DNA of 64,000 nucleotides from Minisyncoccota bacterium (GTDB lineage: Bacteria > Patescibacteriota > Minisyncoccia > UBA6257 > 2-01-FULL-56-20), in contig DATJLR010000007.1 in the NCBI GenBank assembly GCA_035509435.1, positions 1,555 through 65,554 on the forward strand, read 5' to 3'. The notes beneath the pieces were generated by a model. The model saw nothing but the letters and a program-made list of their open reading frames with translations. It was not told the origin of the DNA and searched no databases. This document shows, piece by piece, positions 9,945 through 54,266 of the stretch (the stretch's first letter is position 1; each line of letters opens with the position of its first letter). Made by a program: the position numbers and the translations under genes.

Positions 9945-11732
9945 ATGGCAACCGAACACTCGCCGGAGAAGATCGACCATATCCGCCACTCGCTCGCGCA
10001 CCTGCTCGCGGCAGCGGTGCTCAAAGAATTCCCTGACGCCAAGCTCGGCGTGGGGCCCGCCGTGGAGAACGGCTTCTATTATGACTTTCTGCTCCCCCGC
10101 CCCGTCACGCCGGACGACCTGAAGGTGCTCGAGAAGACGATGCGCTCGTTCGTCAATAAAAAGCTGGCATTCACCGGCCGCGAGGTCACGCCCGCGGAGG
10201 CAAAAAAGCTTTTTGCGCATCAGCCATTTAAGCTGGATCTAATAAACGACTTTGCGGCCGACGGAAAGACGCTGACCGTGTATGAAACGGGTGCGCCAGA
10301 AACCAGTTCCCAGAAACCAGTTACTGTTTTTATGGATCTCTGCCGCGGCGGCCACGTGGAGAACACATCGGAAATTCCCGCGGACGCTTTTACGCTCGAT
10401 AAGATCGCGGGCGCGTACTGGAAGGGCGACGAAAAGAACCAGCAGCTCCAGCGCATCTACGGCCTCGCGTTCGGGAGCAAGGCCGCGTTAAAAGAATATG
10501 AAAAAATGATGGAAGAAGCCAAGAAGCGCGACCATCGCAAGCTTGGCAAGGAACTTCAGCTCTTCGCGATCATCGATGAGATCGGACCGGGCCTTCCGCT
10601 CTTTTATCCGAAAGGAACCATCCTGCGCCGCACGCTGGAAAATTACATTACCGAGCTGCAGGAACGCCGCGGCTACGTGCCGATCTGGATCCCCCACATC
10701 ACGAAGGGCGAGCTGTATAAGATCTCCGGACACCTCGACAAATATGACGCGATGTATCCGCCGATGGAGCTCAAGGACGAGGCGAACTATTACCTCAAGC
10801 CGATGAACTGCCCGCACTTCATGATGCTCTATAAGACACTGCCGCATTCATACCGGGAGCTGCCGGTGCGCTATGTCTGCACGACCACCAATTACCGCTA
10901 CGAAAAGTCCGGCGAACTTTCCGGTCTTACGCGCGTGCGCGCGCTCACGCAGGATGACTGCCACGTGTTCGCGCGCCCGGACCAGATCAAGCAGGAGATC
11001 AATCTGATGCTCGACATGGTCGCCGAGATATACCGGACGTTCGGCTTTGATGATTTCTGGGTGCGCATCTCGACACACGATCCCGCCAATAAGGAAAAAT
11101 ACATCGGCAACCAGAATGTCTGGGCCGATTCAGAGGCGGCGCTCACCGACCTCATAAAGGACCGCGGATGGAAGTATGATATCGGCGTGGGCGAGGCGGC
11201 ATTCTACGGCCCAAAGCTCGACTTTATATTCAAAGATGTCATCGGCCGTGATTGGCAGCTCTCCACCATACAGCTCGACATGAACCTCCCCCAACGGTTC
11301 GAGCTTGAATATATAGATGAAAGTTCTTCAAAGCAGCGCCCGGTGGTGATCCATCGCGCGATCCTCGGATCGACCGAGCGGTTCCTCGGCATCCTCATCG
11401 AGCACTTCGCCGGCAAATTCCCCGTCTGGCTCTCCCCCGTGCAAGTAGCGGTCCTTCCTGTCAGCGAAAAATTCTCCGATTATGGGAAAAAGGTTTTTGA
11501 TGAGCTTGCCGCCGCCGGCATACGCGCCGAGCTCGCGGCCGCGAACGAGTCGCTCGGCAAACGCATCCGCGAAGCGGAACTGATGAAGGTCCCCTACGTG
11601 CTCGTCGTCGGGGAGAAAGAAGAGGGCGGCGGCTCCGTGAACGTCCGCGACCGCAAGGGCGAGGAGCGCGAAATGCCGCTCAAAGAGTTCCTGAAGCATA
11701 TCAGCGCGGAGATAAAAGAAAAAGCGCTGTAA
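9945..11732 (+). CDS. thrS: Threonyl-tRNA synthetase (short form lacking N-terminal TGS domains)
   Basis: Likely true start MATEHSPEKIDHIRHSLAHLLAAAVL at 9945, in frame within the 9525 track ORF. Motifs DLCRGGHV, HRAILGS, C-terminal anticodon-binding domain. Confidence 0.9.
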   Translation: MATEHSPEKIDHIRHSLAHLLAAAVLKEFPDAKLGVGPAVENGFYYDFLLPRPVTPDDLKVLEKTMRSFVNKKLAFTGREVTPAEAKKLFAHQPFKLDLINDFAADGKTLTVYETGAPETSSQKPVTVFMDLCRGGHVENTSEIPADAFTLDKIAGAYWKGDEKNQQLQRIYGLAFGSKAALKEYEKMMEEAKKRDHRKLGKELQLFAIIDEIGPGLPLFYPKGTILRRTLENYITELQERRGYVPIWIPHITKGELYKISGHLDKYDAMYPPMELKDEANYYLKPMNCPHFMMLYKTLPHSYRELPVRYVCTTTNYRYEKSGELSGLTRVRALTQDDCHVFARPDQIKQEINLMLDMVAEIYRTFGFDDFWVRISTHDPANKEKYIGNQNVWADSEAALTDLIKDRGWKYDIGVGEAAFYGPKLDFIFKDVIGRDWQLSTIQLDMNLPQRFELEYIDESSSKQRPVVIHRAILGSTERFLGILIEHFAGKFPVWLSPVQVAVLPVSEKFSDYGKKVFDELAAAGIRAELAAANESLGKRIREAELMKVPYVLVVGEKEEGGGSVNVRDRKGEEREMPLKEFLKHISAEIKEKAL

Positions 11733-20319: not shown

Positions 20320-20394
20320 GGGCTGGTGGTGAAATGGTATCACAGCCTTCTTGCCAGATGGCAGTTCGGGGTTCGATTCTCCGCCAGTCCACCA
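20320..20394 (+). tRNA. tRNA-like gene, Gly(GCC)-like anticodon loop, encoded 3' CCA, irregular anticodon stem
   Basis: Acceptor GGGCTGG/CCAGTCC (one G-U), D arm GTGA-AATGGTA-TCAC, T arm CGGGG-TTCGATT-CTCCG, discriminator A then CCA. The anticodon region GCCTTCTTGCCAGATGGC has loop TTGCCAG (anticodon GCC), but the stem pairs only as G-C, C-G, C-G, TxT, T-A with an 8-nt loop. Confidence 0.55.
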
Positions 20395-20971: not shown

Positions 20972-21036
20972 AGTTCCAGATTGTAGCCGAACCGGCTCTA
21001 AAAGTCCAGCCGGTCCCGGCTACCAGTTTCTCGTTA

Positions 21037-27774
<6,738 letters not shown>

Positions 27775-27986
27775 GGTGTTTTAAAAATAGTTAACGTGTT
27801 CAAGCGATGCCATCAAAACGCAAACGCGCGAAACCCAAAAAAATAGTGGCTTCGCGGCGGATCCTTGAATACGTCGATGAAATAAAATGTGGTGGTCATT
27901 TTTGTTCGGCCTTTATATTACTACACCTGCCAGAGTCCCCAACACGCAAAAAACGGCTCCGCCCTTCCTTTATTTCGAGGGATCCG

Positions 27987-32499: not shown

Positions 32500-33268
32500 C
32501 AATTTCTTCTTCTATCGCCATTACTGGCGGGTTGGACTATACCACCATCTCCACTGAGATGATCGACGTGTTAGTCCGGCATGATTGCCGGACTCCAGCT
32601 CGTAATGAGCTAAGTCTCTAAGGGGTCAATGCATGATATTTCCGCTTTTTTGAATAATTCAGAAAGCGAAAACGTTCTACTAATTCTGCCAACGCTCGAA
32701 AATCATCTTTACTTTGAATTTTCGATTTAGCATCGAGGATTTGGACCATCAGATCGGCTTGCTCACCTTTCAGTATCAGGAACCCACGAACTTCGCCGAG
32801 AAACGATCTGATCGCCTCTTCGCGCGCGATGGTATATTCGATCATGCCATCATTGCGTTCGCGGATATATCCCAAGTTAATAAGCGAACAAATTTCTTCA
32901 AATTTGCGCTGATCTTTTTTGGATTGGAAAAGCACGATGCAAGGAGCTATTTGAAATCCATATCGATAAGTCGAGTTAGATTTCATCCTTACATAGATAC
33001 TCCCATCTCCATCCAGAAATCCTGCTATGTATGCTTTTTGCGTTGACGAAAGACTTTTCATACACGACTTCCCTCGGTATTATCCTACGATCTCACGTCT
33101 CATCAAACTAGTTTTTAATCTATTTTTAATAAGCGTTACGATACATCCCAGGTCAGGATGTTAGGACTTCACCGATATGAGTCGATTTTGCTATCTCGAT
33201 CGCTCGAGAAAGCCGCCGTTTTTGTTTTAACAGTTTTTGATGTACCTTCGATCGGGTTATCTTCGTTG
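32500..33268 (-). mobile_element. Group I intron at 23S position equivalent to E. coli U2593 (I-CreI site)
   Basis: 5' exon ends ...GGGTTCAGACCGT and 3' exon resumes CGTGAGACAGGTCGG. The intron begins CAACGAAG and ends ...AATTG (omega-G). It is ~770 nt and includes a LAGLIDADG ORF. Confidence 0.75.
32618..33061 (-). CDS. LAGLIDADG homing endonuclease (single-motif, I-CreI-like)
   Basis: 147 aa; IAGFLDGDGSIYV motif; encoded inside the 2593 intron. Confidence 0.85.
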   Translation of the reverse strand: MKSLSSTQKAYIAGFLDGDGSIYVRMKSNSTYRYGFQIAPCIVLFQSKKDQRKFEEICSLINLGYIRERNDGMIEYTIAREEAIRSFLGEVRGFLILKGEQADLMVQILDAKSKIQSKDDFRALAELVERFRFLNYSKKRKYHALTP

Positions 33269-34269
33269 ACGGTCTGAACCCAGCTCACGTGCCACTTTAA
33301 TTGGCGAACAGCCAAACGCTTGGGAGCTTCTACACCCCCGCGCTGTGGCGAGCCGACATCGAGGTGCCGAGCATTGTCGTCGCTAGGGACGCTCGGACAA
33401 TACTAGCCTGTTATCCCCGGAGTAGCTTTTATCCGGTGTCTCCGGCCTTTCTATTAAGAAGCCGTCGGGTCACTAACTTCTGCTTTCGCACCTGCTCGTC
33501 TTGTATGACTCGCAGTCAAGCCAGCTTTTGCGTTTGCACGTCCTGCCCGATTTCCATCCGGGCTAAGCTAACCTTAATAAACTCCTCCGTTACTCTTTTG
33601 GAGGAAAACGCCCCATTTAAACTGCCTACCAAGCACTGTCTTAGCGGAGTTTCCCCGAAGGGTTCTCCGCCAGTTAGACGTCAAAATTCTGAAAATGGCT
33701 GTTTCATTGTCGGATCCACGTCACCCGAAAGCGACGCTTCAAATCCTCGCCACTACACTACGTAACAGAACTCTGAAATCAATACCAAGCTGCAGTAAAG
33801 CTTCCGGGGTCTTTTCGTCCCGCTGCAGGTATCCCGCGTCTTCACGGGAATCGCATTTTCACCGAGCTCATCGTTGAGACAGTTCTCCGGTCGTTACACC
33901 TTTCGTGCGCTTCGGAACTTACCCGAAAAGGAATTGCGCTCAAACATGTTACAACACTTTTTGTTGGCCAAAACATTTCTGCTTGGCTCTCTGTGTCGCC
34001 ACAGAGTTCGGACTATATCTTATCGCCTTGCGGCGATCCTAACGTGTAGTCTCTGAGGATCCTTCAAAAGAAGTTTCCTGCTGATTTTCCGCATCGATCA
34101 AAGATTGTTACCTTGCGGTACTTTGATATGCGCGGGTGTTCCAGCATATAGTTAGGTTTTACTAAGGCAATGCAATCACCTTAGAACGATTCTTTTACGT
34201 TATCACCCGCTCGTTTTTTAATTTAAGCGGGATCCTCATGGTCGCCCATGAGATCGGACTATATCATCT

Positions 34270-34827
34270 CTAAAAACTTTTAGAGTCTGGCGTATAGTCT
34301 CTGAGGATTCCTTGATAGTCTATTTCTACGTCTATTACGTTGTATTTACGCCTTCTTCCTCTTCCCTCATTTAAATTTTCCCTGATAGCGATAATTTCTT
34401 GCAGTCCTTTTGGATCAAGGTGTTTGCCTTGCTCCATAAGAAATGCAATTTGTTTGAACAGGAGAAAATTTTTCTTTTTTGATGAAGAAAAGAAAGGAAA
34501 CTTTTCGAAAAACGGTATGACGCGATCAATGATCGAACGATAATCGCCGACGACGAAGTAATGCACTCCGTCTTCACGATTTTGCAATCGTCCGCAACCT
34601 AAATGACTTTTTAATAATTCCAAATTGGCGATATCGCGCTGGGCCACGTTAAAGGTCATTTGCACCTGCCATCCAAGGCGATGCCCATTCCCTTTTCGAA
34701 GAGAGACATTAAAACTTCCCTCTCCATCCGTAAAACCAGAAAGATACCAGCCAATGTTGTCTGGAATTTTCTCAAGCCATTCACGGTTATACCAAGGCCT
34801 TTCCTGCTGATTGTCTGCACCGATCAT
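34270..34827 (-). CDS. LAGLIDADG homing endonuclease (single-motif)
   Basis: 185 aa; LSGFTDGEGSFNVS motif. Confidence 0.85.
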   Translation of the reverse strand: MIGADNQQERPWYNREWLEKIPDNIGWYLSGFTDGEGSFNVSLRKGNGHRLGWQVQMTFNVAQRDIANLELLKSHLGCGRLQNREDGVHYFVVGDYRSIIDRVIPFFEKFPFFSSSKKKNFLLFKQIAFLMEQGKHLDPKGLQEIIAIRENLNEGRGRRRKYNVIDVEIDYQGILRDYTPDSKSF

Positions 34828-34991
34828 ATTGTCACGCTAGCACATCAACATTAAATCTTTATTAAAAAGATTTCATGATGAGCAACGTAATGTCGGATTC
34901 TCAGAGTTTCCAGCATTTGGCCAGATTTTATAACTACAATCGTTATGTCTATAGTTATCGCTGACATTGACGAGGGCTTGAATCAGTGAGC

Positions 34992-35080
34992 CTCCTGGTA
35001 ACTAATTGCTAGTAACTCGGTAACCTAGCAAGAAAAATCTTGCTAGTTACCAAGGTTTACTAGTAACCAGTGACCAGGAG
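34992..35080. repeat. Imperfect ~40-bp-stem hairpin built from GTTAC(C/T)AG / CTAGTAAC words at the 5' edge of the domain-IV insertion (replaces the helix-68-like hairpin)
   Basis: ctcctggtaactaattgctagtaactcggtaacctagcaag-aaaaatc-ttgctagttaccaaggtttactagtaaccagtgaccaggag. Confidence 0.7.
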
Positions 35081-35723
35081 ACCCCCAATCTTGACCTTCT
35101 CGCATCGGTCAGGTGTCACCCCCTATACATCCTGTTGCCAGTTAGCAGGGAGCTGTGTTTTTGGTAAACAGTCGCCAGAGATTCTTTAGCTGCGGCCCCG
35201 CCCGCATTGCTGCGGAAAGGGCAGGCCTTATTGCTAACTTACGGCCGCTATTTTGCCTAGTTCCTTAACGATGAATCACTCGTTCCCCTTGGGCTACTCG
35301 CCCTATACACCAGTGTCGGTTTCCGGTACGGAGACCACACGCTCGATTTGGCCAAATTTTTCTCGAACGGCTCTTCACAAACGTCGGCCAGGTAAATTCC
35401 TGACCTTCTCTCGGCGCGCGCTTGAACTCCGCGCAAAGAATGCCAAACCGATAAGGCACGCCTGCTTATATCCGTTGTCCTTTGGTTATGATCGTGCGGC
35501 CGGGCTGGAATATTAACCAGCTTCCCATCGACTGCCCCTTTCGGGATCGCCTTAGGACCGCCTAACCCGTGGTTGATTGCCAGTGCCACGGAAACCTTGT
35601 ATTTTCGGGGTTCCAATTTCTCATTGGGATTGTGGTTACTCATTCCAACATTTTCTCTTCCGGCCGCTCCAAACGCCCTCGCGGGTCGATCTTCACTGCA
35701 GGCCGAAATGCTCTCCTACCACT

Positions 35724-35762
35724 ACTGGTAACTGATTACTAGTTGCTAGTAAACCTAGTAGA
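35724..35762. repeat. IVS 3'-flank motif block, complementary to 36163..36204 (RNase III-type stem of the 23S IVS)
   Basis: ctggtaactgattactagttgctagtaaacctagtag; reverse complement of the 5'-flank block is ctggtaactgattactggtaactaggaactagtaacaag. Confidence 0.7.
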
Positions 35763-36113
35763 TTTTTCAATGCTTTTTGTAAGATTGGTCAATTCTTTGC
35801 CGACGATCGCGTATTGCTCGGAAAGGAATTTGTATTGTTCATCGGAAAGTAACTCCACTTTCCGCATGAATTCAAGATTGAACGCTATTTCATCCGCTGA
35901 TCCCAAGGAATCTTTCAGATGATTGATCGTGTCCTTCTTTGATTTCTTCCGTGCGAACCCTTCCGCGATGTTTGAGGGAATTGAACGTGAGGCCCGCCGT
36001 ATTTGATCGGCAAGCTCCAGTTTATATTCCTTCGGCAATGAAAGAGATATTTTATGAACCTTTATTGCAAGTTCGAACGATCTTTTGAACACATCAAGAT
36101 CTTTGTATATCAT
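35739..36113 (-). CDS. 23S rRNA intervening-sequence protein (four-helix-bundle, TIGR02436-like)
   Basis: 124 aa; FELAIKVHKISLSLPKEYKLELADQIRRASRSIPSNIAEGFARK. Sits at a helix-45-like position (~E. coli 1170-1200) flanked by complementary motif blocks. Confidence 0.8.
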   Translation of the reverse strand: MIYKDLDVFKRSFELAIKVHKISLSLPKEYKLELADQIRRASRSIPSNIAEGFARKKSKKDTINHLKDSLGSADEIAFNLEFMRKVELLSDEQYKFLSEQYAIVGKELTNLTKSIEKSTRFTSN

Positions 36114-36162
36114 CCTTCCATTGAACCATTTCTCGCATTAACTCTTTCTTAAATCTTTTCCT

Positions 36163-36204
36163 TGTTACTAGTTCCTAGTTACCAGTAATCAGTTACCAGT
36201 AATC
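36163..36204. repeat. IVS 5'-flank motif block (partner of 35724..35762)
   Basis: cttgttactagttcctagttaccagtaatcagttaccagtaatccg. Confidence 0.7.
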
Positions 36205-37050
36205 CGTATCTTCGGTACCATGCTTAGCCCCGGTACATTTTCGGCGCCACGACCCGTCGAATAGTGAGTTGTTACACACTCTTTAAAGGATGGCTACCTC
36301 TAAGCCAACCTCCTATCTGTCTATGGGTCATGACTACCTTTTACACTTAGCATGGATTTAGGGACCTTAGATGACGATCTGGGCTCTTCCCCTCGCGACC
36401 ACGGAGCTTAGCCCCCGCAGTCTAACTAGCAAGATCTTGACTCTCGGTATTCGGAGTTTGATTGATCGTTCGGTCTTTCGACCTGTAACGATCATCCAGT
36501 GCTCTACCCCCAAGAGGAACTCTTGCCGCCAGTCCTAAAACTGTTTCGGAGAGAACCAGCTATTACGTTATTCGATTAGCTTTTCACTCCTTACCTCAGC
36601 TCATCCGAAGATTTTGAACAATCAACCGGTTCGGGCCTCCCTCCCGATTTCTCGGGAGTTCACCCTGGCCAAGGCAAGCTCATAACGCTTCGGGTCTATC
36701 TTGTGCTGCGATCCCACTCAAATTTTTGGAGCCGTGACAAATCCACGGCGATGCGGTATTTTTATGATTAGCTTCTCCTCCACGGGAGGCCGTATGTTCT
36801 CAGGACACAGCCCCGATCCCATGCTTCAGGGCCTCACTTCCTTTCTCATGGAAGCAAACCCGATTGCCTGGGGAGTGCTTGCCGTCGGTGTCGCATTGCT
36901 TATCGTGGCCATTTGGAGCATGCACCACGAAAACAAAACCCCGACCTGCAAGTGACCAATCTGCCAAAACACCTGCCCGCTCACGCGCGCGGGTGTTTTC
37001 TTTTGGCGCTCACGCGCCGCTTATTTCTCCAAAAATTTGAGTGGGATGTG

Positions 37051-37081
<31 letters not shown>

Positions 37082-37244
37082 TCACGCTATGCGCGCTTAG
37101 ACAAGCAACACAAAATAAGTCGTTGGATCATTCTTCAATAGGCACATTGTTCCACTCGTCCGCGGATTGCTCCGCAGCCGTTCGTGGTTCAATTCCTTGT
37201 AGACAAACGGTTTCAGGTTCTATTTCAACGGCCTCACCGGCCTG

Positions 37245-37281
<37 letters not shown>

Positions 37282-38230
37282 ATCTAGAAAAGTATTTAGC
37301 CTTACCTGATAGTACAGGTGTATTCCTCCGGAACTGTTTTACTCCGAAGTACTCAAGTTAAAAAACTAAGGAGACCAAAAGTTTTCGTCTACGGGGCTAT
37401 CACCCGCTCTGGCGCCGCTTTCCAGACGGCTTCGACTAACCAATGATTTTTTTACTCCTCCACCTCCCAGCGAGTAACGCAACGTACACTTGCGTGCGCG
37501 CTACGTTACTTGCTAAAAGAGCGTTTTTTACTGAACCCCAAGATCGTGATAAATCACAACCTTAGTTTGGGCTCCTCCCCGTTCTCTCGCCGATACTTAG
37601 GGAATAACTGATTTGTTCTATTTTCCTCCGCTTACTGGAATGTTTTACTTCAGCGGGTACGCGATCCGCTTGCGCGGAACAATTGAGGGTTACTCAACTA
37701 GGTTTCCCCATTCGGAAATTCCCGGATCACAGGTTGCTACGCACCTCCCCGAGACATATCGTTGCTACGCCACGTCCTTCATCGCCTTTTCTAGTCTAGG
37801 CATCCACCGTTCGCCCTTATTTGCCAACCATCCCAATGCTGACTTGCTCGTGGATCACAGCGAAACGCCGCAATCCACTTGCCATCAGTAAGAAAAATTC
37901 TTACCGATGCTTTGACCCTGTCCGTCACGAGAAATTGACTACATATGCGTATGCAGCGATCCGGCCCACCCGCAATGCGGATGTTAGCGACCGGACCTAA
38001 TAGTGACACAGGGTCTCCATATTATGTCCTCCGACTCTACAATTCGGAGTTCCGCCAAATCGGCGAATGATTTGAAATAGCATTTGCTCAGCATCGCGAG
38101 ACGCTGCAAGACACGGACCGCCAAGAAAAAAATCAGCCGCACACAGCGGCCGCTGACTGCTTCAAAGAAGCGGCTTCAGCCGGAGTGTTGTGAGAGATTT
38201 AAAGTCTTGACCATTCGTATCTTGAGGATA

Positions 38231-48080: not shown

Positions 48081-49067
48081 ATGGCAGGGATGAAGTCGCC
48101 AAATTCACCCTTGATGTATGCACGACGACGACGCGCGAACAAAAAATGGCTGTGGGTGGCAGTTGCAGCCATCACTTGCCTGATTGTGCTATGCGGCTGG
48201 TGGGCTTTCGCCCGATCGCCAGCGTCCCCGTCTGCGAATACGCCGCCCGGCACGCTCGCGTGGCCGTCGTTCGGACAGGCCGCCGTCGGCATCGTTGGCA
48301 CGAGCACGATCCAAACATACGGCGATCAAACGCCAGTGCCGACGGCGAGTACCGCAAAAATGATCACCGCTCTCGTGGTGCTCCAAGCCAAACCGCTCTC
48401 GCCCGGCCAAACCGGTCCGATGCTTACCATGTCGCGCGATGACCTTGTCTTATTGAAAACCTACGCCGCCCTTGATGGCTCGAGAATCACCAAAATGGGG
48501 GTCGGCGAACAGCTGAGCGAGTATCAGATGCTGGAAGCCATGATGCTACCCTCCGCCGACAATGCAGCCGACAGCCTGGCCATCTGGGCGTATGGCTCGC
48601 TGCCCGCATACAGCGCAGCTGCCAACAGTTATCTGGCCGGTTTGGGCTTAAGCGGCACGCATGTGGGAACCGACGCGAGCGGCCTTGACCCGAGCACGGT
48701 AAGCACCGCGCACGACATGGTGCTCATCGGCGAACTTGTTATGCAGAATCCTGTGCTTGCGGAAATTGTTGGGGAGCAAAGTGTCAGCGGGTTTCCCTTG
48801 GTAGGCACCATTACCAACACGAACAGCTTGCTTGGCCAGGACGGGATCGTCGGCGTGAAGACCGGCAATAGCGACGAGCAGAGCGGCGCTTATGTGGCGG
48901 CCGCGGATGCCACTGTGAACGGAAAAACTGAAACCATCGTAACGGCAGTACTTGATGCGCCGAGCCTCGACGACGCCATGGATGCCAGCGTGCCGTTGAT
49001 AAAGAGCACCAGGTTTGGCTCTTTATCAAAATCCCGACCTAAAGCCACTCAGGATGTTTCTCTTTAA
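48081..49067 (+). CDS. D-alanyl-D-alanine carboxypeptidase (S11, PBP5-like)
   Basis: TM/signal; STAKMIT (SxxK), SADN (SxN), KTG-like region. Confidence 0.75.
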   Translation: MAGMKSPNSPLMYARRRRANKKWLWVAVAAITCLIVLCGWWAFARSPASPSANTPPGTLAWPSFGQAAVGIVGTSTIQTYGDQTPVPTASTAKMITALVVLQAKPLSPGQTGPMLTMSRDDLVLLKTYAALDGSRITKMGVGEQLSEYQMLEAMMLPSADNAADSLAIWAYGSLPAYSAAANSYLAGLGLSGTHVGTDASGLDPSTVSTAHDMVLIGELVMQNPVLAEIVGEQSVSGFPLVGTITNTNSLLGQDGIVGVKTGNSDEQSGAYVAAADATVNGKTETIVTAVLDAPSLDDAMDASVPLIKSTRFGSLSKSRPKATQDVSL

Positions 49068-49395
49068 TCGAATTAAACCATTCAGCACCAATGATATCTT
49101 CAAGGCTATAATCTTTAAACTCTTTTGATTGAGAGAGGTCGATGACATCTTTTTCGTCTACATAGACCTTGCATTCCCCGCTTGATTCCACGTCACGAAT
49201 TTCTCCTGGGAAAATTTGCAGGTTGATCTTGTTATTCTTGTGTCTCATATAAAAGAGCCAAATTTTTTGGCCGTTATGTAATGGCCCATATTTATCAACT
49301 AGCTTCTTAATCCAAATTTGATTACGTAATGAGAAATGTCCATCAGCATAGTCGTTCCAATCCCCATTGATAAATACTTGTTTCCCTGATTTCAT
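49039..49395 (-). CDS. Hypothetical protein in AT-rich island (candidate immunity/accessory)
   Basis: 118 aa; local GC roughly 38% versus ~60% for the flanks. Confidence 0.4.
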   Translation of the reverse strand: MKSGKQVFINGDWNDYADGHFSLRNQIWIKKLVDKYGPLHNGQKIWLFYMRHKNNKINLQIFPGEIRDVESSGECKVYVDEKDVIDLSQSKEFKDYSLEDIIGAEWFNSIKEKHPEWL

Positions 49396-49401
49396 GTTTT
49401 T

Positions 49402-49773
49402 TTAGCACTTAGAAAGCTCGAATTTCCCTACGTTCTCTTTAAAAGAATTGCCGTAAGCATATAGTTCGATTTGGGTAATACGGCCGTCCTTTCCCCATAA
49501 TACCGATCCGCCTCCATCATCGATATCCTGAGATTTTATTTCTGGTCCATCAAGCGGCCATCCTTTTTTTCTTAATTTATTTATATCAACAAGGTTCGCG
49601 TCCGAAGAAACGTCGAGCTTTATATAAAATCCCGTTTTAGTCCATTTTCGCTCTTTCAATTTAGCAGTATTTATTTGCACGGAAAGATTCTCGTCTTTAT
49701 AGCGTTGGGCGAACCATTGCAAAATAGCCTTTTCTAAACTATTCAACTGAACTTTGCTTGAAGATGATTCCAT
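49402..49773 (-). CDS. Hypothetical protein in AT-rich island (candidate immunity protein)
   Basis: 123-aa ORF in the same low-GC block, tightly spaced. Confidence 0.4.
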   Translation of the reverse strand: MESSSSKVQLNSLEKAILQWFAQRYKDENLSVQINTAKLKERKWTKTGFYIKLDVSSDANLVDINKLRKKGWPLDGPEIKSQDIDDGGGSVLWGKDGRITQIELYAYGNSFKENVGKFELSKC

Positions 49774-49787
49774 TCAAACTGGCGACG

Positions 49788-50108
49788 CTAAACTTGCTTC
49801 TTCTGTTTACTGTCATAAACAAATTCATAAGCGATATCCCCTTCCTTGTGCTGCTCAAAGAAATCCTTTGCTTTTTGGTAAGAAATTTCAAAACTATCAT
49901 CGGAATAGTCAGCAGAGTAATCTTGATCGATTTGGATCGCCCGAGGAGAAACATTTTTAAGTAAATGAAATCCATCGAAACCGAGTAAGCGCAAGTTGTT
50001 TTCTCTCAATAGACCAAGAAACACTACTGCGTCCTTCCTGTTGAGGAGAGTCGCATTATCGTAGGGTTTTAGTCTGTGTTCGGATAGGAATTGTTGTATT
50101 TTGTCCAT
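49788..50108 (-). CDS. Hypothetical protein in AT-rich island (candidate immunity protein)
   Basis: 106 aa; directly downstream of the toxin-like gene. Confidence 0.4.
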   Translation of the reverse strand: MDKIQQFLSEHRLKPYDNATLLNRKDAVVFLGLLRENNLRLLGFDGFHLLKNVSPRAIQIDQDYSADYSDDSFEISYQKAKDFFEQHKEGDIAYEFVYDSKQKKQV

Positions 50109-50120
50109 GGCTTTAATATA

Positions 50121-50729
50121 TCACTCAAATGGAAAGATTTCATCTGGAACTATGATGCCTGGTTCTTCCGGAACGACCTCCGGAATATATGGATCTTGAA
50201 TGGAAGAATCGGGATACCATTCAGGATCATTTTTGTTGGATACTTGAATTACTTGTTTAGTCACATTATCAACGGAAACATAGTTCCCCTGCTCATCATA
50301 ATACGCGGTCGCTGGATTGCCATTTGCCTTATTCGCTGCAGCGCGCGTGGTGAAGGGATTTCCATAAAGCTTGTCTATGTCTTGCTGAGTCCAACCGCGA
50401 CCCTCCATTTGATTGGATATTTTTTCTGGGATTACAGGACCGCTACCCCCTCCACCAGACCCTCCCGAAGTCACCAAACTTCCATACCCACCAATAGATA
50501 TCCACGGCGATCCCGTTCCACCCTGCCCTCCTCCAGCTGGCGTATTAACACCAACATTGTTCAGATTAGAAGGATTGCCTGCTTTGCCAATATTCGTAGA
50601 ACCAACATTATTTCCCTGACCCGGATTACTCATTGACCCTCCTGTTGTAGCGGCTAATTGCCCCAAGCTATTAACTATGGATTGCAAACTATTCACTATT
50701 TGCTGTAGTGAAGCGATAATAGATTTCAA
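50121..50729 (-). CDS. Gly/Asn-rich secreted protein with conserved C-terminal toxin-like domain (polymorphic-toxin-like)
   Basis: 202 aa; N-terminal LQQIVNSLQSIVNSLGQLAATTGG, Gly-rich linker, C-terminal GWTQQDIDKLYGNPFTTRAA...ATAYYDEQGNYVSVDNVTKQVIQVS, followed by three small ORFs. Confidence 0.45.
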   Translation of the reverse strand: MKSIIASLQQIVNSLQSIVNSLGQLAATTGGSMSNPGQGNNVGSTNIGKAGNPSNLNNVGVNTPAGGGQGGTGSPWISIGGYGSLVTSGGSGGGGSGPVIPEKISNQMEGRGWTQQDIDKLYGNPFTTRAAANKANGNPATAYYDEQGNYVSVDNVTKQVIQVSNKNDPEWYPDSSIQDPYIPEVVPEEPGIIVPDEIFPFE

Positions 50730-51027
50730 ATCTTTTCCGCTCGGATCTTTCTTGGTAATGGGATTATCATCGGAATACGAATACGCATTCTAAGCTGCCT
50801 TTCATCCCGAATACAACAAACCGAGGCCTCTCGGTCTTAAAAGAATCTACCTTGGCTGTTGCGGGGGCAAGACTCGGACTTGCTTCGGAAGCTTATGGGG
50901 CTTCCCGGAAAACCTTTCCCAACCCTCCCGCGCGATGATGCCTGCGCGGGCATTGAGGGCTCACGCATGCATCGCTGTCCTGTGCATTATATAAATTTTC
51001 TGGCGTGATTGTCAAAAGAACGGATTA

Positions 51028-52436: not shown

Positions 52437-52778
52437 TTGAAAAAACCGGCGTCATCGGCTAAGATGGTGGTAATGTCATCCTCCATCAACAAGAAGGAGC
52501 TGGAGCGTTTGGCCAAGCTCGCGCGGATCGAGCTCGACCCTGCCGAGGAAGAGAAATTGCTCAAAGACCTCGGCAATATCCTTGACCACTTTAAGGAGCT
52601 CCAGGCGCTCGACACCGCGAACGTCCCGCCCATGGCCGGCGGCACCGACCTCACGAACGTGTTCCGCGAGGACGGCGAAGATCACGGCGGACCCGAGAGC
52701 ACGAACCGCGGCGCGGGCGTTGACGCATTCCCCGAGTCAAAAGACGGCTACCTCAAAGTCCCGCCGGTATTTGAATAG
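52437..52778 (+). CDS. gatC: Asp/Glu-tRNA amidotransferase subunit C
   Basis: INKKELERLAKLARIELDPAEEEKLLKDLGNILDHFKELQALDTANVPP. Confidence 0.85.
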   Translation: MKKPASSAKMVVMSSSINKKELERLAKLARIELDPAEEEKLLKDLGNILDHFKELQALDTANVPPMAGGTDLTNVFREDGEDHGGPESTNRGAGVDAFPESKDGYLKVPPVFE

Positions 52779-52814
52779 CAAGAAACTATTTACCAGAAAC
52801 TAATTACCAGTACG

Positions 52815-54266
52815 GTGCCGCTTCACGAACTGACCATCAAAAAATTCCACGAGGGACTGCTCAACAAAGAGTTCTCCGCGCTCGAGGTCACGCAGGCGCA
52901 TTTTGACCGGATAAAAAAGCATGACCCGGAGATCGGCGCGTATCTGAGCCTGGCCGAAGAGTCCGCCGCGCGCGAAGCGAGCGCGGTGGATGTCGCGATC
53001 GCCGAAGGCGAGAACGTCGGCATGCTCGCCGGCGTGCCGCTCGGAATAAAGGACAACATCCTCATTAAAGACCTCCCCGCCACTGCTGCTTCAAAAATAT
53101 TGGAAAACTACATCGCGAGCTATGACGCGGGCGTGATCACAAAACTGAAATCTGAACGCGCGGTATTCCTCGGCAAGACGAACCTGGACGAATTCGCAAT
53201 GGGCGCATCGACAGAAAATTCCGCCTTCAAGATCACAAAGAACCCCCACGACACAACCCGCGTCCCGGGCGGCACATCCGGCGGATCCGCTGCGGCGGTC
53301 GCGGCGCATTTTGCGATCGCAGCGCTCGGCTCCGATACGGGAGGTTCCATCCGGCAGCCGGCAAGTTTTTGCGGCGTCGTAGGAATGAGCCCCACGTATG
53401 GCGCGGTCTCGCGCTCCGGCGTCATCGCCATGACGTCGAGCCTTGATCAGGTCGGCCCGATGACAAAGACGGTCGAAGACGCAGCGATCCTCTTTAAAGC
53501 GATCGCCGGCAAAGACCCGCTTGATTCGACAAGCGCCGATCGGGAATTCGAAAGCGATTTTACGGATCCCAAGCTTGATAAAATAAAACAGCTTACCGTC
53601 GGACTGCCGGAAGAATATTTTATAGACGGAACCGACCGTGTGGTCGCAAAAGAGATTGAGGACGTTATAGAAAAGCTGAAAGGGCTTGGTATGAAATTCA
53701 AAAGGGTTTCCCTGCCCCATACAAAATATGCAGTAGCTGCGTATTATATCTTTGTACCCGCAGAAGTAAGCTCCAACTTGGCCCGCTTCGATGGCATCCG
53801 TTACGGAAAAAGGGCGGCAAACGCAGAAACACTGCACGATGTCTACGTAAAAACACGGGGTGCCGGATTCGGCGTCGAGGCAAAACGACGGATAATACTT
53901 GGCACGTTCGTCCTATCTGCCGGATATTATGATGCATATTACGAAAAAGCTCAGCGCGTACGCACCCTCGTAAAGCGTGACTTCGAAGAGGCTTTCAAAG
54001 AAGTGGACGTCATGCTCACGCCGGTATCCCCCACTCCCGCCTTCAAGATCGGCGAGAAGATCGATGATCCGTTTGCGATGTATCTTTGCGATATGTTTAC
54101 TCTTCCATTAAAGCTTGGCGGATTTCCGGCCATCTCCATCCCCACCAAGCCGCCGGCGTCGCTCGCGCCGGGAGAGCTCCCTGTCGGCTTCCAGCTGATC
54201 GGCAAGAAATGGCACGAGGCGGACATCTTGGGGATCGGCCAATTTTATGAGAAACTGAACCAATGA
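52815..54266 (+). CDS. gatA: Glutamyl-tRNA(Gln) amidotransferase subunit A
   Basis: Amidase signature GGSSGGSAAAVAAHF; GTG start. Confidence 0.9.
   Translation: MPLHELTIKKFHEGLLNKEFSALEVTQAHFDRIKKHDPEIGAYLSLAEESAAREASAVDVAIAEGENVGMLAGVPLGIKDNILIKDLPATAASKILENYIASYDAGVITKLKSERAVFLGKTNLDEFAMGASTENSAFKITKNPHDTTRVPGGTSGGSAAAVAAHFAIAALGSDTGGSIRQPASFCGVVGMSPTYGAVSRSGVIAMTSSLDQVGPMTKTVEDAAILFKAIAGKDPLDSTSADREFESDFTDPKLDKIKQLTVGLPEEYFIDGTDRVVAKEIEDVIEKLKGLGMKFKRVSLPHTKYAVAAYYIFVPAEVSSNLARFDGIRYGKRAANAETLHDVYVKTRGAGFGVEAKRRIILGTFVLSAGYYDAYYEKAQRVRTLVKRDFEEAFKEVDVMLTPVSPTPAFKIGEKIDDPFAMYLCDMFTLPLKLGGFPAISIPTKPPASLAPGELPVGFQLIGKKWHEADILGIGQFYEKLNQ

Follow-up and report, generated by a model that had tools for sequence, protein, structure and literature searches.

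[quoted passage not shown] Intervening sequences of the 23S rRNA that carry a 23S_rRNA_IVP gene are known in Leptospira, Coxiella, and Salmonella. The Rickettsia palindromic elements (RPEs) are palindromic repeats of about 100–150 bp, each family of which encodes a conserved peptide. The small dispersed repeats (SDRs) of Nostocales, reportedly described by Elhai et al. in 2008, are said to be about 20–30 nt long, to lie often within heptamer arrays, and to have been inferred to be mobile. Among the simple-sequence repeats, the heptameric kind, exemplified by the cyanobacterial STRR and the GGGAATC-type repeats of Xanthomonas and Nostoc, is over-represented in bacterial intergenic DNA, lies in spacers within operons, and can be AT-rich or G-rich according to the genome (PMC4692102). 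These repeats are found either alone or in convergent inverted pairs and differ from one close relative to the next, and no function is known for them (PMC4692102). RPEs are found in frame in housekeeping genes, at surface-exposed sites, as well as in non-coding DNA and in RNA genes (PMC10969869), and rRNA insertions with IVP ORFs have been documented in bacteria of the candidate phyla radiation (CPR) (PMC11270868).

Here we describe the spacer that separates gatC from gatA in a CPR genome, which belongs to Paceibacterota/Minisyncoccia (Parcubacteria) by the names given to identical or near-identical proteins, together with the related units found in the window, by which we mean the whole 64-kb stretch of DNA that was analyzed. 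On the basis of copies counted within these 64 kb of the genome, the spacer is probably one lineage-specific member of a family of short, dispersed heptad repeats, and would be a passive linker that lacks both structure and a Shine-Dalgarno motif.

Layout of the gatC–gatA junction

The TAG that ends gatC occupies positions 52776–52778, in the context GTA TTT GAA TAG preceded by CCG CCG, and the GTG at 52815 opens a gatA ORF of 483 aa in the same frame as gatC (Table 1). The first-pass annotation had placed these two codons 36 nt apart in one frame, and both the sequence and the list of ORFs confirmed this layout; an independent gene caller also gave the same gatC and gatA calls on an identical contig. 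GatC was confirmed by Pfam (PF02686, E 5e-16), and the identity of GatA was taken from source names and precomputed Pfam hits. As the start of gatC, the gene caller chose ATG 52464; the N-termini of the relatives favor ATG 52474. The spacer, caagaaactatttaccagaaactaattaccagtacg, contains 12 G+C among its 36 nt (33%), compared with about 58% for the genome. It is identical in two further assemblies, and therefore is no assembly artefact.

Table 1. Features of the gatC–gatA junction and copies of the repeat family in the window
Feature	Position	Strand	Description and basis
lepA copy	1893..1957	-	Hairpin-forming; encodes LVTRDLELVTGNARNKLLETS
thrS copy	10293..10328	+	36 nt; encodes APETSSQKPVTV; period-14 array; consensus match
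rpoC 3'-end copy CTGGAAACTAGTAGCTAGTAACGAGAAACTGGTAGC	21019..21054	-	36 nt; last codons LETSS plus TAG TAA stops
ORF-less near-perfect hairpin with family words, 23S helix tip	34988..35084	-	97 nt; -61 kcal/mol; z -10.8
23S intervening sequence, 3' arm	35722..35760	-	TACCAGT-type heptads; complementary to 5' arm
23S intervening sequence, 5' arm	36160..36202	-	ACTGGTA-type heptads
Promoter-like TTGAAA-17-TAAGAT upstream of gatC	52437..52465	+	Consensus scan; putative function
gatC CDS	52474..52778	+	Ends PPVFE-TAG; ORF list, Pfam, gene call, relatives
gatC–gatA spacer	52779..52814	+	Sequence; fold; missing in six close relatives
Tandem repeat AGAAACTAWTTACC x2.1, two alternating heptads	52781..52810	+	Tandem Repeats Finder
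Core match to consensus AAACNAGTTNCYAGAAACCA, 2 mismatches	52783..52802	+	Pattern from thrS and lepA only
gatA CDS	52815..54266	+	GTG start; one residue shorter than relatives (ATG GAA CCN)

The N-terminus of GatA, MPLHELTIKKF, aligns with MEPLHDLTIKKF of the relatives. Since the GatA of the relatives begins MEPLH and the protein here (M)PLH, initiation must take place at or next to GTG 52815. No ATG, GTG, or TTG was found in the spacer in any frame, and a Shine-Dalgarno motif (GGAGG-like, 5–10 nt before the start) is absent from it. The predicted minimum free energy of the spacer RNA is 0 kcal/mol, i.e., the RNA is predicted to be unstructured, and a promoter and terminator scan called neither within the spacer. 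The sequence TAATTA, located 8 nt before the GTG and mirroring the TAAGAT of gatC, was considered as a promoter and rejected, as it matches the -10 consensus at only two of six positions and was uncalled by the scan. Of 28 genes in the window, which have AU-rich leaders, only 2 are preceded by a Shine-Dalgarno motif. Judged from the sequence, the gatC mRNA is probably leaderless, with TAAGAT lying 8 nt before ATG 52474; the arrangement TTGAAA...TAAGAT-N7/8-ATG also occurs in two of the relatives (L164 and L165).

Just upstream of murD-gatCA lies a low-GC island (49000–51000, 38–46% GC) with minus-strand ORFs, one of which gave a Colicin_E5 domain match. This island may be foreign DNA.

The junction in related genomes

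The close set comprised six genomes with GatA 79–87% identical and with the murD-gatC-gatA-downstream synteny kept. Their spacers measure 1, 1, 18, 22, 38, and 348 nt, are mutually unrelated and AT-rich, and contain neither Shine-Dalgarno motifs nor the words of the repeat family described below. All six combine a TAA stop with an ATG start, the tightest junction reading TAAtATG, and in four of them the spacer length (1, 1, 22, and 38 nt) is no multiple of three, so that gatA is out of frame with gatC. The 348-nt spacer of the closest relative (L163, 87% GatA identity) holds an ORF of 112 aa (9658–9996), and evidently the gatC/gatA junction accepts large insertions too. The product of this ORF, which is AT-rich, is hydrophobic and without a Pfam match. 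No clusters of family words were found in the loci of four close relatives (L163–L166), and the pattern ACYAG-N9-ACYAG had no match in about 100 kb of relatives' loci. The lack of the spacer sequence in all six close relatives indicates that it is a recent, lineage-specific acquisition.

The first-pass annotation had suggested that the element targets gene junctions and had proposed a comparison of gatCA junctions in related genomes as a check. This comparison returned unrelated spacers of arbitrary length, the very result that the annotation had named as a refutation, and the family occurs at only two gene boundaries in the window (gatC/gatA and the rpoC 3' end), which together argue against such targeting. 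Nor was there evidence that the exact in-frame 36-nt unit matters: the frame is not conserved and the prior for an in-frame spacer is 1 in 3, so the length and the frame need no special explanation, and the exact layout carries no demonstrated function.

Heptad arrays were found at the same junction in more distant genomes. In L003 (GatA 67% identical; 2376–2417), a TAG is followed by 36 nt, AAACTAG AAAATAG AAAGTAG AAAGTAG AATTTAG A, and then by ATG, and in L083 (64%; 1091–1133) the gatC TAG is followed by 37 nt with five similar heptads of the AAAGTAG type and then by ATG. Inverted heptad arrays lie upstream of gatA in L087 and L092, among others. The arrays of these distant relatives consist of different units, contain in-frame stops, and are common in other intergenic spacers there too. 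From their sequences, the L003 and L083 arrays appear to represent an independent recurrence at the gatC–gatA junction; this site has thus gained arrays of about five heptads more than once. The TAG followed by exactly 36 nt of heptads in L003 could hint at a preference of length or site that our best explanation does not cover.

The spacer is in frame and offers 12 codons without a stop, as would be needed for a programmed read-through of the gatC TAG that yields a GatC-linker-GatA fusion with the linker QETIYQKLITST. We consider such a fusion extremely improbable, because the frame is not conserved in the relatives, the 36-nt spacer of L003 contains an in-frame TAG, TAG also terminates rpoC and the IVP ORF of the window, and no suppressor tRNA was seen among the window tRNAs. 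Moreover, the joint prior for a spacer both in frame and free of stops is about 0.1.

A dispersed family of heptad-built units

Tandem Repeats Finder assigned the array in the spacer a period of 14, not 7 (score 53, 93% matches), the alternating heptads being AAACTAW and TTACCAG. A lag-7 self-identity scan of the window flagged only an rRNA insertion arm, and the four period-14 arrays in the 64 kb all belong to the family (spacer; thrS, 10296–10322; 23S insertion arm, 36158–36204). The consensus AAACNAGTTNCYAGAAACCA was written from the thrS and lepA units alone. At up to three mismatches it gave four matches in the window, compared with 0.06 expected from shuffled sequence, from which all pattern expectations were taken, and beyond the source copies it picked out only two sites, the rpoC 3' end with 3 mismatches and the spacer with 2. 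Apart from the spacer, a 23S insertion arm is the sole place with an exact TTACCAG-N7-TTACCAG; when as many as two mismatches were allowed, the pattern matched seven times (0.15 expected). The pattern ACYAG-N9-ACYAG matched eight times (0.10 expected), in thrS, at the rpoC end, in the spacer, and five times in the rRNA insertions, and GTTACCAG and GTTACTAG are 10- to 20-fold enriched in the window. The core of the family can be written as GCCAG-AAACNAG-TTACYAG-AAACCAG. These consensus and pattern tests bore out the earlier claim that the spacer and the intragenic units have their word content in common. Taken one at a time, the pairwise matches of the spacer 36-mer are short, with a BLAST E value of about 1 and a longest exact run of 10 nt, which counts against the reading of the spacer as a family copy. 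The tetranucleotide CTAG is about three-fold depleted window-wide (62 observed, 208 expected); many of its sites fall within the repeat family.

Raw word matches overcall the family. Clusters of the ACCAGAAAC type at 24497–24535 (RpoC) and 25883–25912 (RpoB) were rejected as units, being ordinary conserved coding sequence. A listing of low-GC islands, of which the window has hundreds, was unhelpful for finding units, and k-mer enrichment was dominated by A/T runs, the family words lying outside the most enriched k-mers. A DNA uptake sequence (DUS/USS-like, with a 9–12-nt core at about one per kb) was considered and rejected, as the family words are too few, at only about seven loci in 64 kb with half of these in the rRNA gene, and are not top k-mers. 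About 1.5 kb of sequence beyond the window contained no new family copy. When IMG/VR was scanned, one family pattern matched 5 times and a second 51 times, numbers that were judged compatible with chance without a computed expectation; the second set (51) consisted mostly of conserved phage coding sequence and a few unrelated arrays of 14-nt period (TTACCAGTA), and no IVP gene was found near the inspected matches of this set.

The protein loop filled by the thrS unit (GCG CCA GAA ACC AGT TCC CAG AAA CCA GTT ACT GTT) is 'DV' in the majority of relatives, with 'APGEAPI' in those that are closest; in a thrS relative the DNA at this site is the GC-rich and unrelated GCG CCG GGC GAG GCG CCG ATC. 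In this gene, 31 nt replaced 16 nt, which is not a clean 36-nt insertion. The LepA loop is hypervariable; the copy there amounts to a net gain of only 5 codons and is also present in a diverged form in an 84% relative. The thrS and lepA units thus replace older sequence and are no plain insertions. Between the 3' half of the lepA copy and the thrS unit, 25 of 28 nt are identical, yet the thrS unit is read as PETSSQKPV and the lepA unit as ARNKLLETS, in different frames, indicating that the homology is at the level of DNA and not of protein. The orthologous sites of the gatCA and thrS copies in relatives are empty or otherwise filled.

The rpoC-end copy sits in a hairpin of -26 kcal/mol. Within the 23S rRNA gene, near E. 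coli position 1164, an intervening sequence carries between its two arms an IVP ORF (35742–36119; PF05635, E 1e-28), whose last codons and TAG stop are supplied by the 3' arm, and, by comparison with the LSU rRNA model, the ORF-less hairpin listed in Table 1 is an insertion of 82 nt. Hairpins were found only for the lepA, rpoC-end, and rRNA copies; the gatCA and thrS copies gave 0 kcal/mol or folds no better than shuffles. Neither terminal inverted repeats nor a target-site duplication was visible at the gatCA copy. Apart from the two gene boundaries, the remaining copies are in variable protein loops and at rRNA hairpin tips, all of which are places that tolerate extra sequence. The repeat family supplies the stop codons of rpoC and of the IVP ORF and builds the stems of the rRNA insertions, and such units can mislead gene callers on starts and stops and inflate the apparent 'insertions' in protein loops of CPR genomes.

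Several features adjoining these copies were also noted. The ThrRS loop after Y-x-T-G is an insertion hot spot in Parcubacteria (alignment P0121–P0199), where six or more unrelated inserts of low complexity occur, among them KAINAKYQIPDTKY, RSHQSSKNHNLRSKTY, and DENPEKST. The rpoB and rpoC genes form a single ORF of 2248 codons (21037–27780, minus strand) with no stop or restart at their junction, suggestive of a fusion of the beta and beta' subunits like that of Helicobacter. The 23S rRNA gene (33157–37830, minus strand) is 4674 nt long, compared with a 2925-nt model, and has no adjacent 16S gene; its insertions include a LAGLIDADG ORF (34273–34836) and a group I intron core (33989–34187), after AACUAU at about E. 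coli position 1917, with others lying close to the 5' end. A tRNA at 20320–20391 (plus strand) scored 45 bits with Rfam in a local scan and was missed in the whole-window scan; ARAGORN gave an abnormal anticodon loop, and the tRNA looks Gly(GCC)-like with a U-U mismatch or a 6-nt loop.

The similarity of the spacer to the other units might be a matter of convergence, if a simple-sequence repeat had been born in place from an AT-rich spacer of about 22 nt by a 14-nt slippage duplication. The spacer can be parsed as CA + 14 + 14 + AGTACG, and 22 + 14 gives 36, the spacer of L168 being 22 nt long; heptad arrays with other units also lie upstream of gatA in several Patescibacteria, and heptameric repeats are over-represented in bacterial intergenic DNA and vary among close relatives (PMC4692102). 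This origin is nevertheless doubtful, given that 18 of 20 positions of the spacer core match the thrS and lepA consensus, for which 0.06 matches are expected per window, that the spacer reproduces the exact TTACCAG-N7-TTACCAG of an rRNA insertion arm, and that the de-duplicated 22-mer has, by eye, no convincing likeness to the spacers of the relatives. A putative derivation of the unit from the ancestral junction was also considered, the two (AATAATATGGAACC against AATAGCAAGAAACT) matching at 9 of 14 positions.

According to the first-pass annotation, the spacer has the same length as the intragenic units. This holds for the thrS and rpoC-end units, of 36 nt each, and fails for the lepA copy of about 64 nt and the rRNA arms of about 40–45 nt. 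The model behind that claim, a fixed 36-nt element inserting preferentially in frame, inside genes and at junctions, could draw on the three 36-nt units with their one codon register and on L003 and L083, where gatC likewise ends in TAG and is followed by five heptads, in spacers of 36 and 37 nt, respectively. We regard it as very unlikely, since the spacers of the closest relatives are unrelated and range from 1 to 348 nt (1, 1, 18, 22, 38, 348), the lepA copy lies in another frame with its net gain of 5 codons only, the thrS copy exchanged 16 nt for 31 nt, and the rRNA copies measure about 40–97 nt; an in-frame state in coding DNA is, in addition, what selection lets survive. The shared register itself unites the thrS, rpoC-end, and gatCA units, three of the four of the GAAAC type, which read (C)NA GAA ACN, and the spacer sequence CAA GAA ACT ATT TAC CAG AAA CTA ATT matches the thrS sequence CCA GAA ACC AGT TCC CAG AAA CCA GTT at 21 of 27 nt in the same register. 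This sharing goes beyond a purely neutral model and is suggestive at most, the few copies making it weak evidence.

All four GAAAC-type copies are on the sense strand. This orientation, the predicted total lack of structure in the spacer, and the apparent use of AU-rich leaders in place of Shine-Dalgarno motifs in this genome are features that a functional cis-element would also have, whether as an initiation or standby region for gatA or as an RNase cleavage, protein, or small-RNA site tuning GatC:GatA. Such a role is unlikely, as relatives with 1-nt or unrelated spacers have no sequence-specific need for it, and as a role in initiation would be senseless for those copies of the unit that lie well inside ORFs or in rRNA.

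We therefore return to the reading of the spacer as a copy of the dispersed repeat. The unit would have been copied into the junction in this lineage by a transposition-like insertion or by templated patch repair or conversion, and its arrival would have been accompanied by the change of the start from ATG GAA to ACG GTG; a 14-nt slippage probably then lengthened it. The resulting AU-rich and predicted fully unstructured spacer would act as a passive intercistronic linker. Because it is unstructured, lacks a Shine-Dalgarno motif, and has no start codon before the GTG, ribosomes can initiate at the first start codon that they meet, and those ending gatC, or binding de novo, would start at the GTG. 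The length of 36 nt and the shared frame would be incidental. The unit looks like a tolerated, lineage-specific filler rather than a device aimed at gene junctions.

Heptad arrays at IVP genes and comparison with known systems

Twelve IVP or 'four helix bundle' genes (PF05635/TIGR02436) were examined. Four came from the window and metagenomic loci (window, 35722–36202; L149, 1134–1729; L010, 3465–4391; L004, 1276–2473) and eight from plasmid records (L228–L235) of Nostoc, Geminocystis, Pseudanabaena, Oscillatoria, Tolypothrix, and Azospirillum. Arrays with a period of about 7 abut one or both ends of the gene in 10 of the 12 cases, which span CPR, cyanobacteria, and a proteobacterium. These arrays are mostly inverted on the two sides, commonly 28–48 nt and often about 35 nt long, and their unit differs per genome. 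A distance of about 450–550 nt separates the IVP gene from its nearest array in L004 and, on the upstream side, in L010. Nearly every array detected in the 1.5-kb plasmid loci adjoins the IVP gene. Heptamer arrays and IVP genes appear to be physically coupled across phyla, and literature searches found no published link of IVP genes with heptamer repeats.

One may speculate that the spacer is the orphan arm of a tiny copy-and-paste element of a hitherto undescribed kind, which when complete consists of arrays of about five heptads flanking an IVP gene; we hold this to be a minor chance. If it were true, ORF-less hairpins and single arms would colonize permissive sites such as rRNA helix tips, protein loops, gene ends, and operon junctions, and the long-unexplained heptamer repeats of bacteria would be tied to the equally unexplained IVP protein family.

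The 'four helix bundle'/IVP proteins are relatives of Avd, the accessory protein of diversity-generating retroelements (DGRs). In a close relative (contig of P0127), an RVT_1 reverse transcriptase, a bAvd/IVP-like gene, and a large ORF are located a few kb from thrS. This cluster looks like a DGR, and the corresponding region here (L170) is without it.

The array at the gatCA junction resembles the heptameric repeats in being built of 7-nt words, in its intercistronic position, and in being absent or different in the six close relatives. It differs from them in having only about five heptads, of two alternating kinds and with a period of 14, and in that its core of 20–28 nt recurs at unlinked sites, including essential genes, where it is in frame, and rRNA. 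This recurrence at unlinked sites marks it as a dispersed repeat and not a locally generated microsatellite. Like the RPEs, it belongs to a family of short repeats in a reduced genome with in-frame copies in unrelated housekeeping genes; unlike them, the units here are only about 28–64 nt long and are read in different frames, and inverted repeats are missing from the gatCA and thrS copies. With regard to the features that define MITEs and RPEs, the dispersed copies of the family share sequence beyond a simple repeat, whereas terminal inverted repeats or a palindrome are lacking in the gatCA and thrS copies. The family therefore fails strict membership of both the heptameric repeats and the RPEs. 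It provides an example from the CPR of a very short repeat family that enters essential genes in frame, in different reading frames, and extends the RPE type of phenomenon to a much smaller element and a new phylum.

The SDRs of Nostocales are likewise very small repeats; they belong to another phylum and are not known to have sequence similarity to the family described here. With the 23S intervening sequences the gatCA copy shares only its word content, the arm words of the IVP insertion in the window being the words of the gatCA spacer. Unlike those sequences, the gatCA copy lies outside rRNA, in an mRNA spacer, and consists of one arm with neither stem nor ORF. The novelty of the present case is that the arm sequence of an intervening sequence turns up in mRNAs too.
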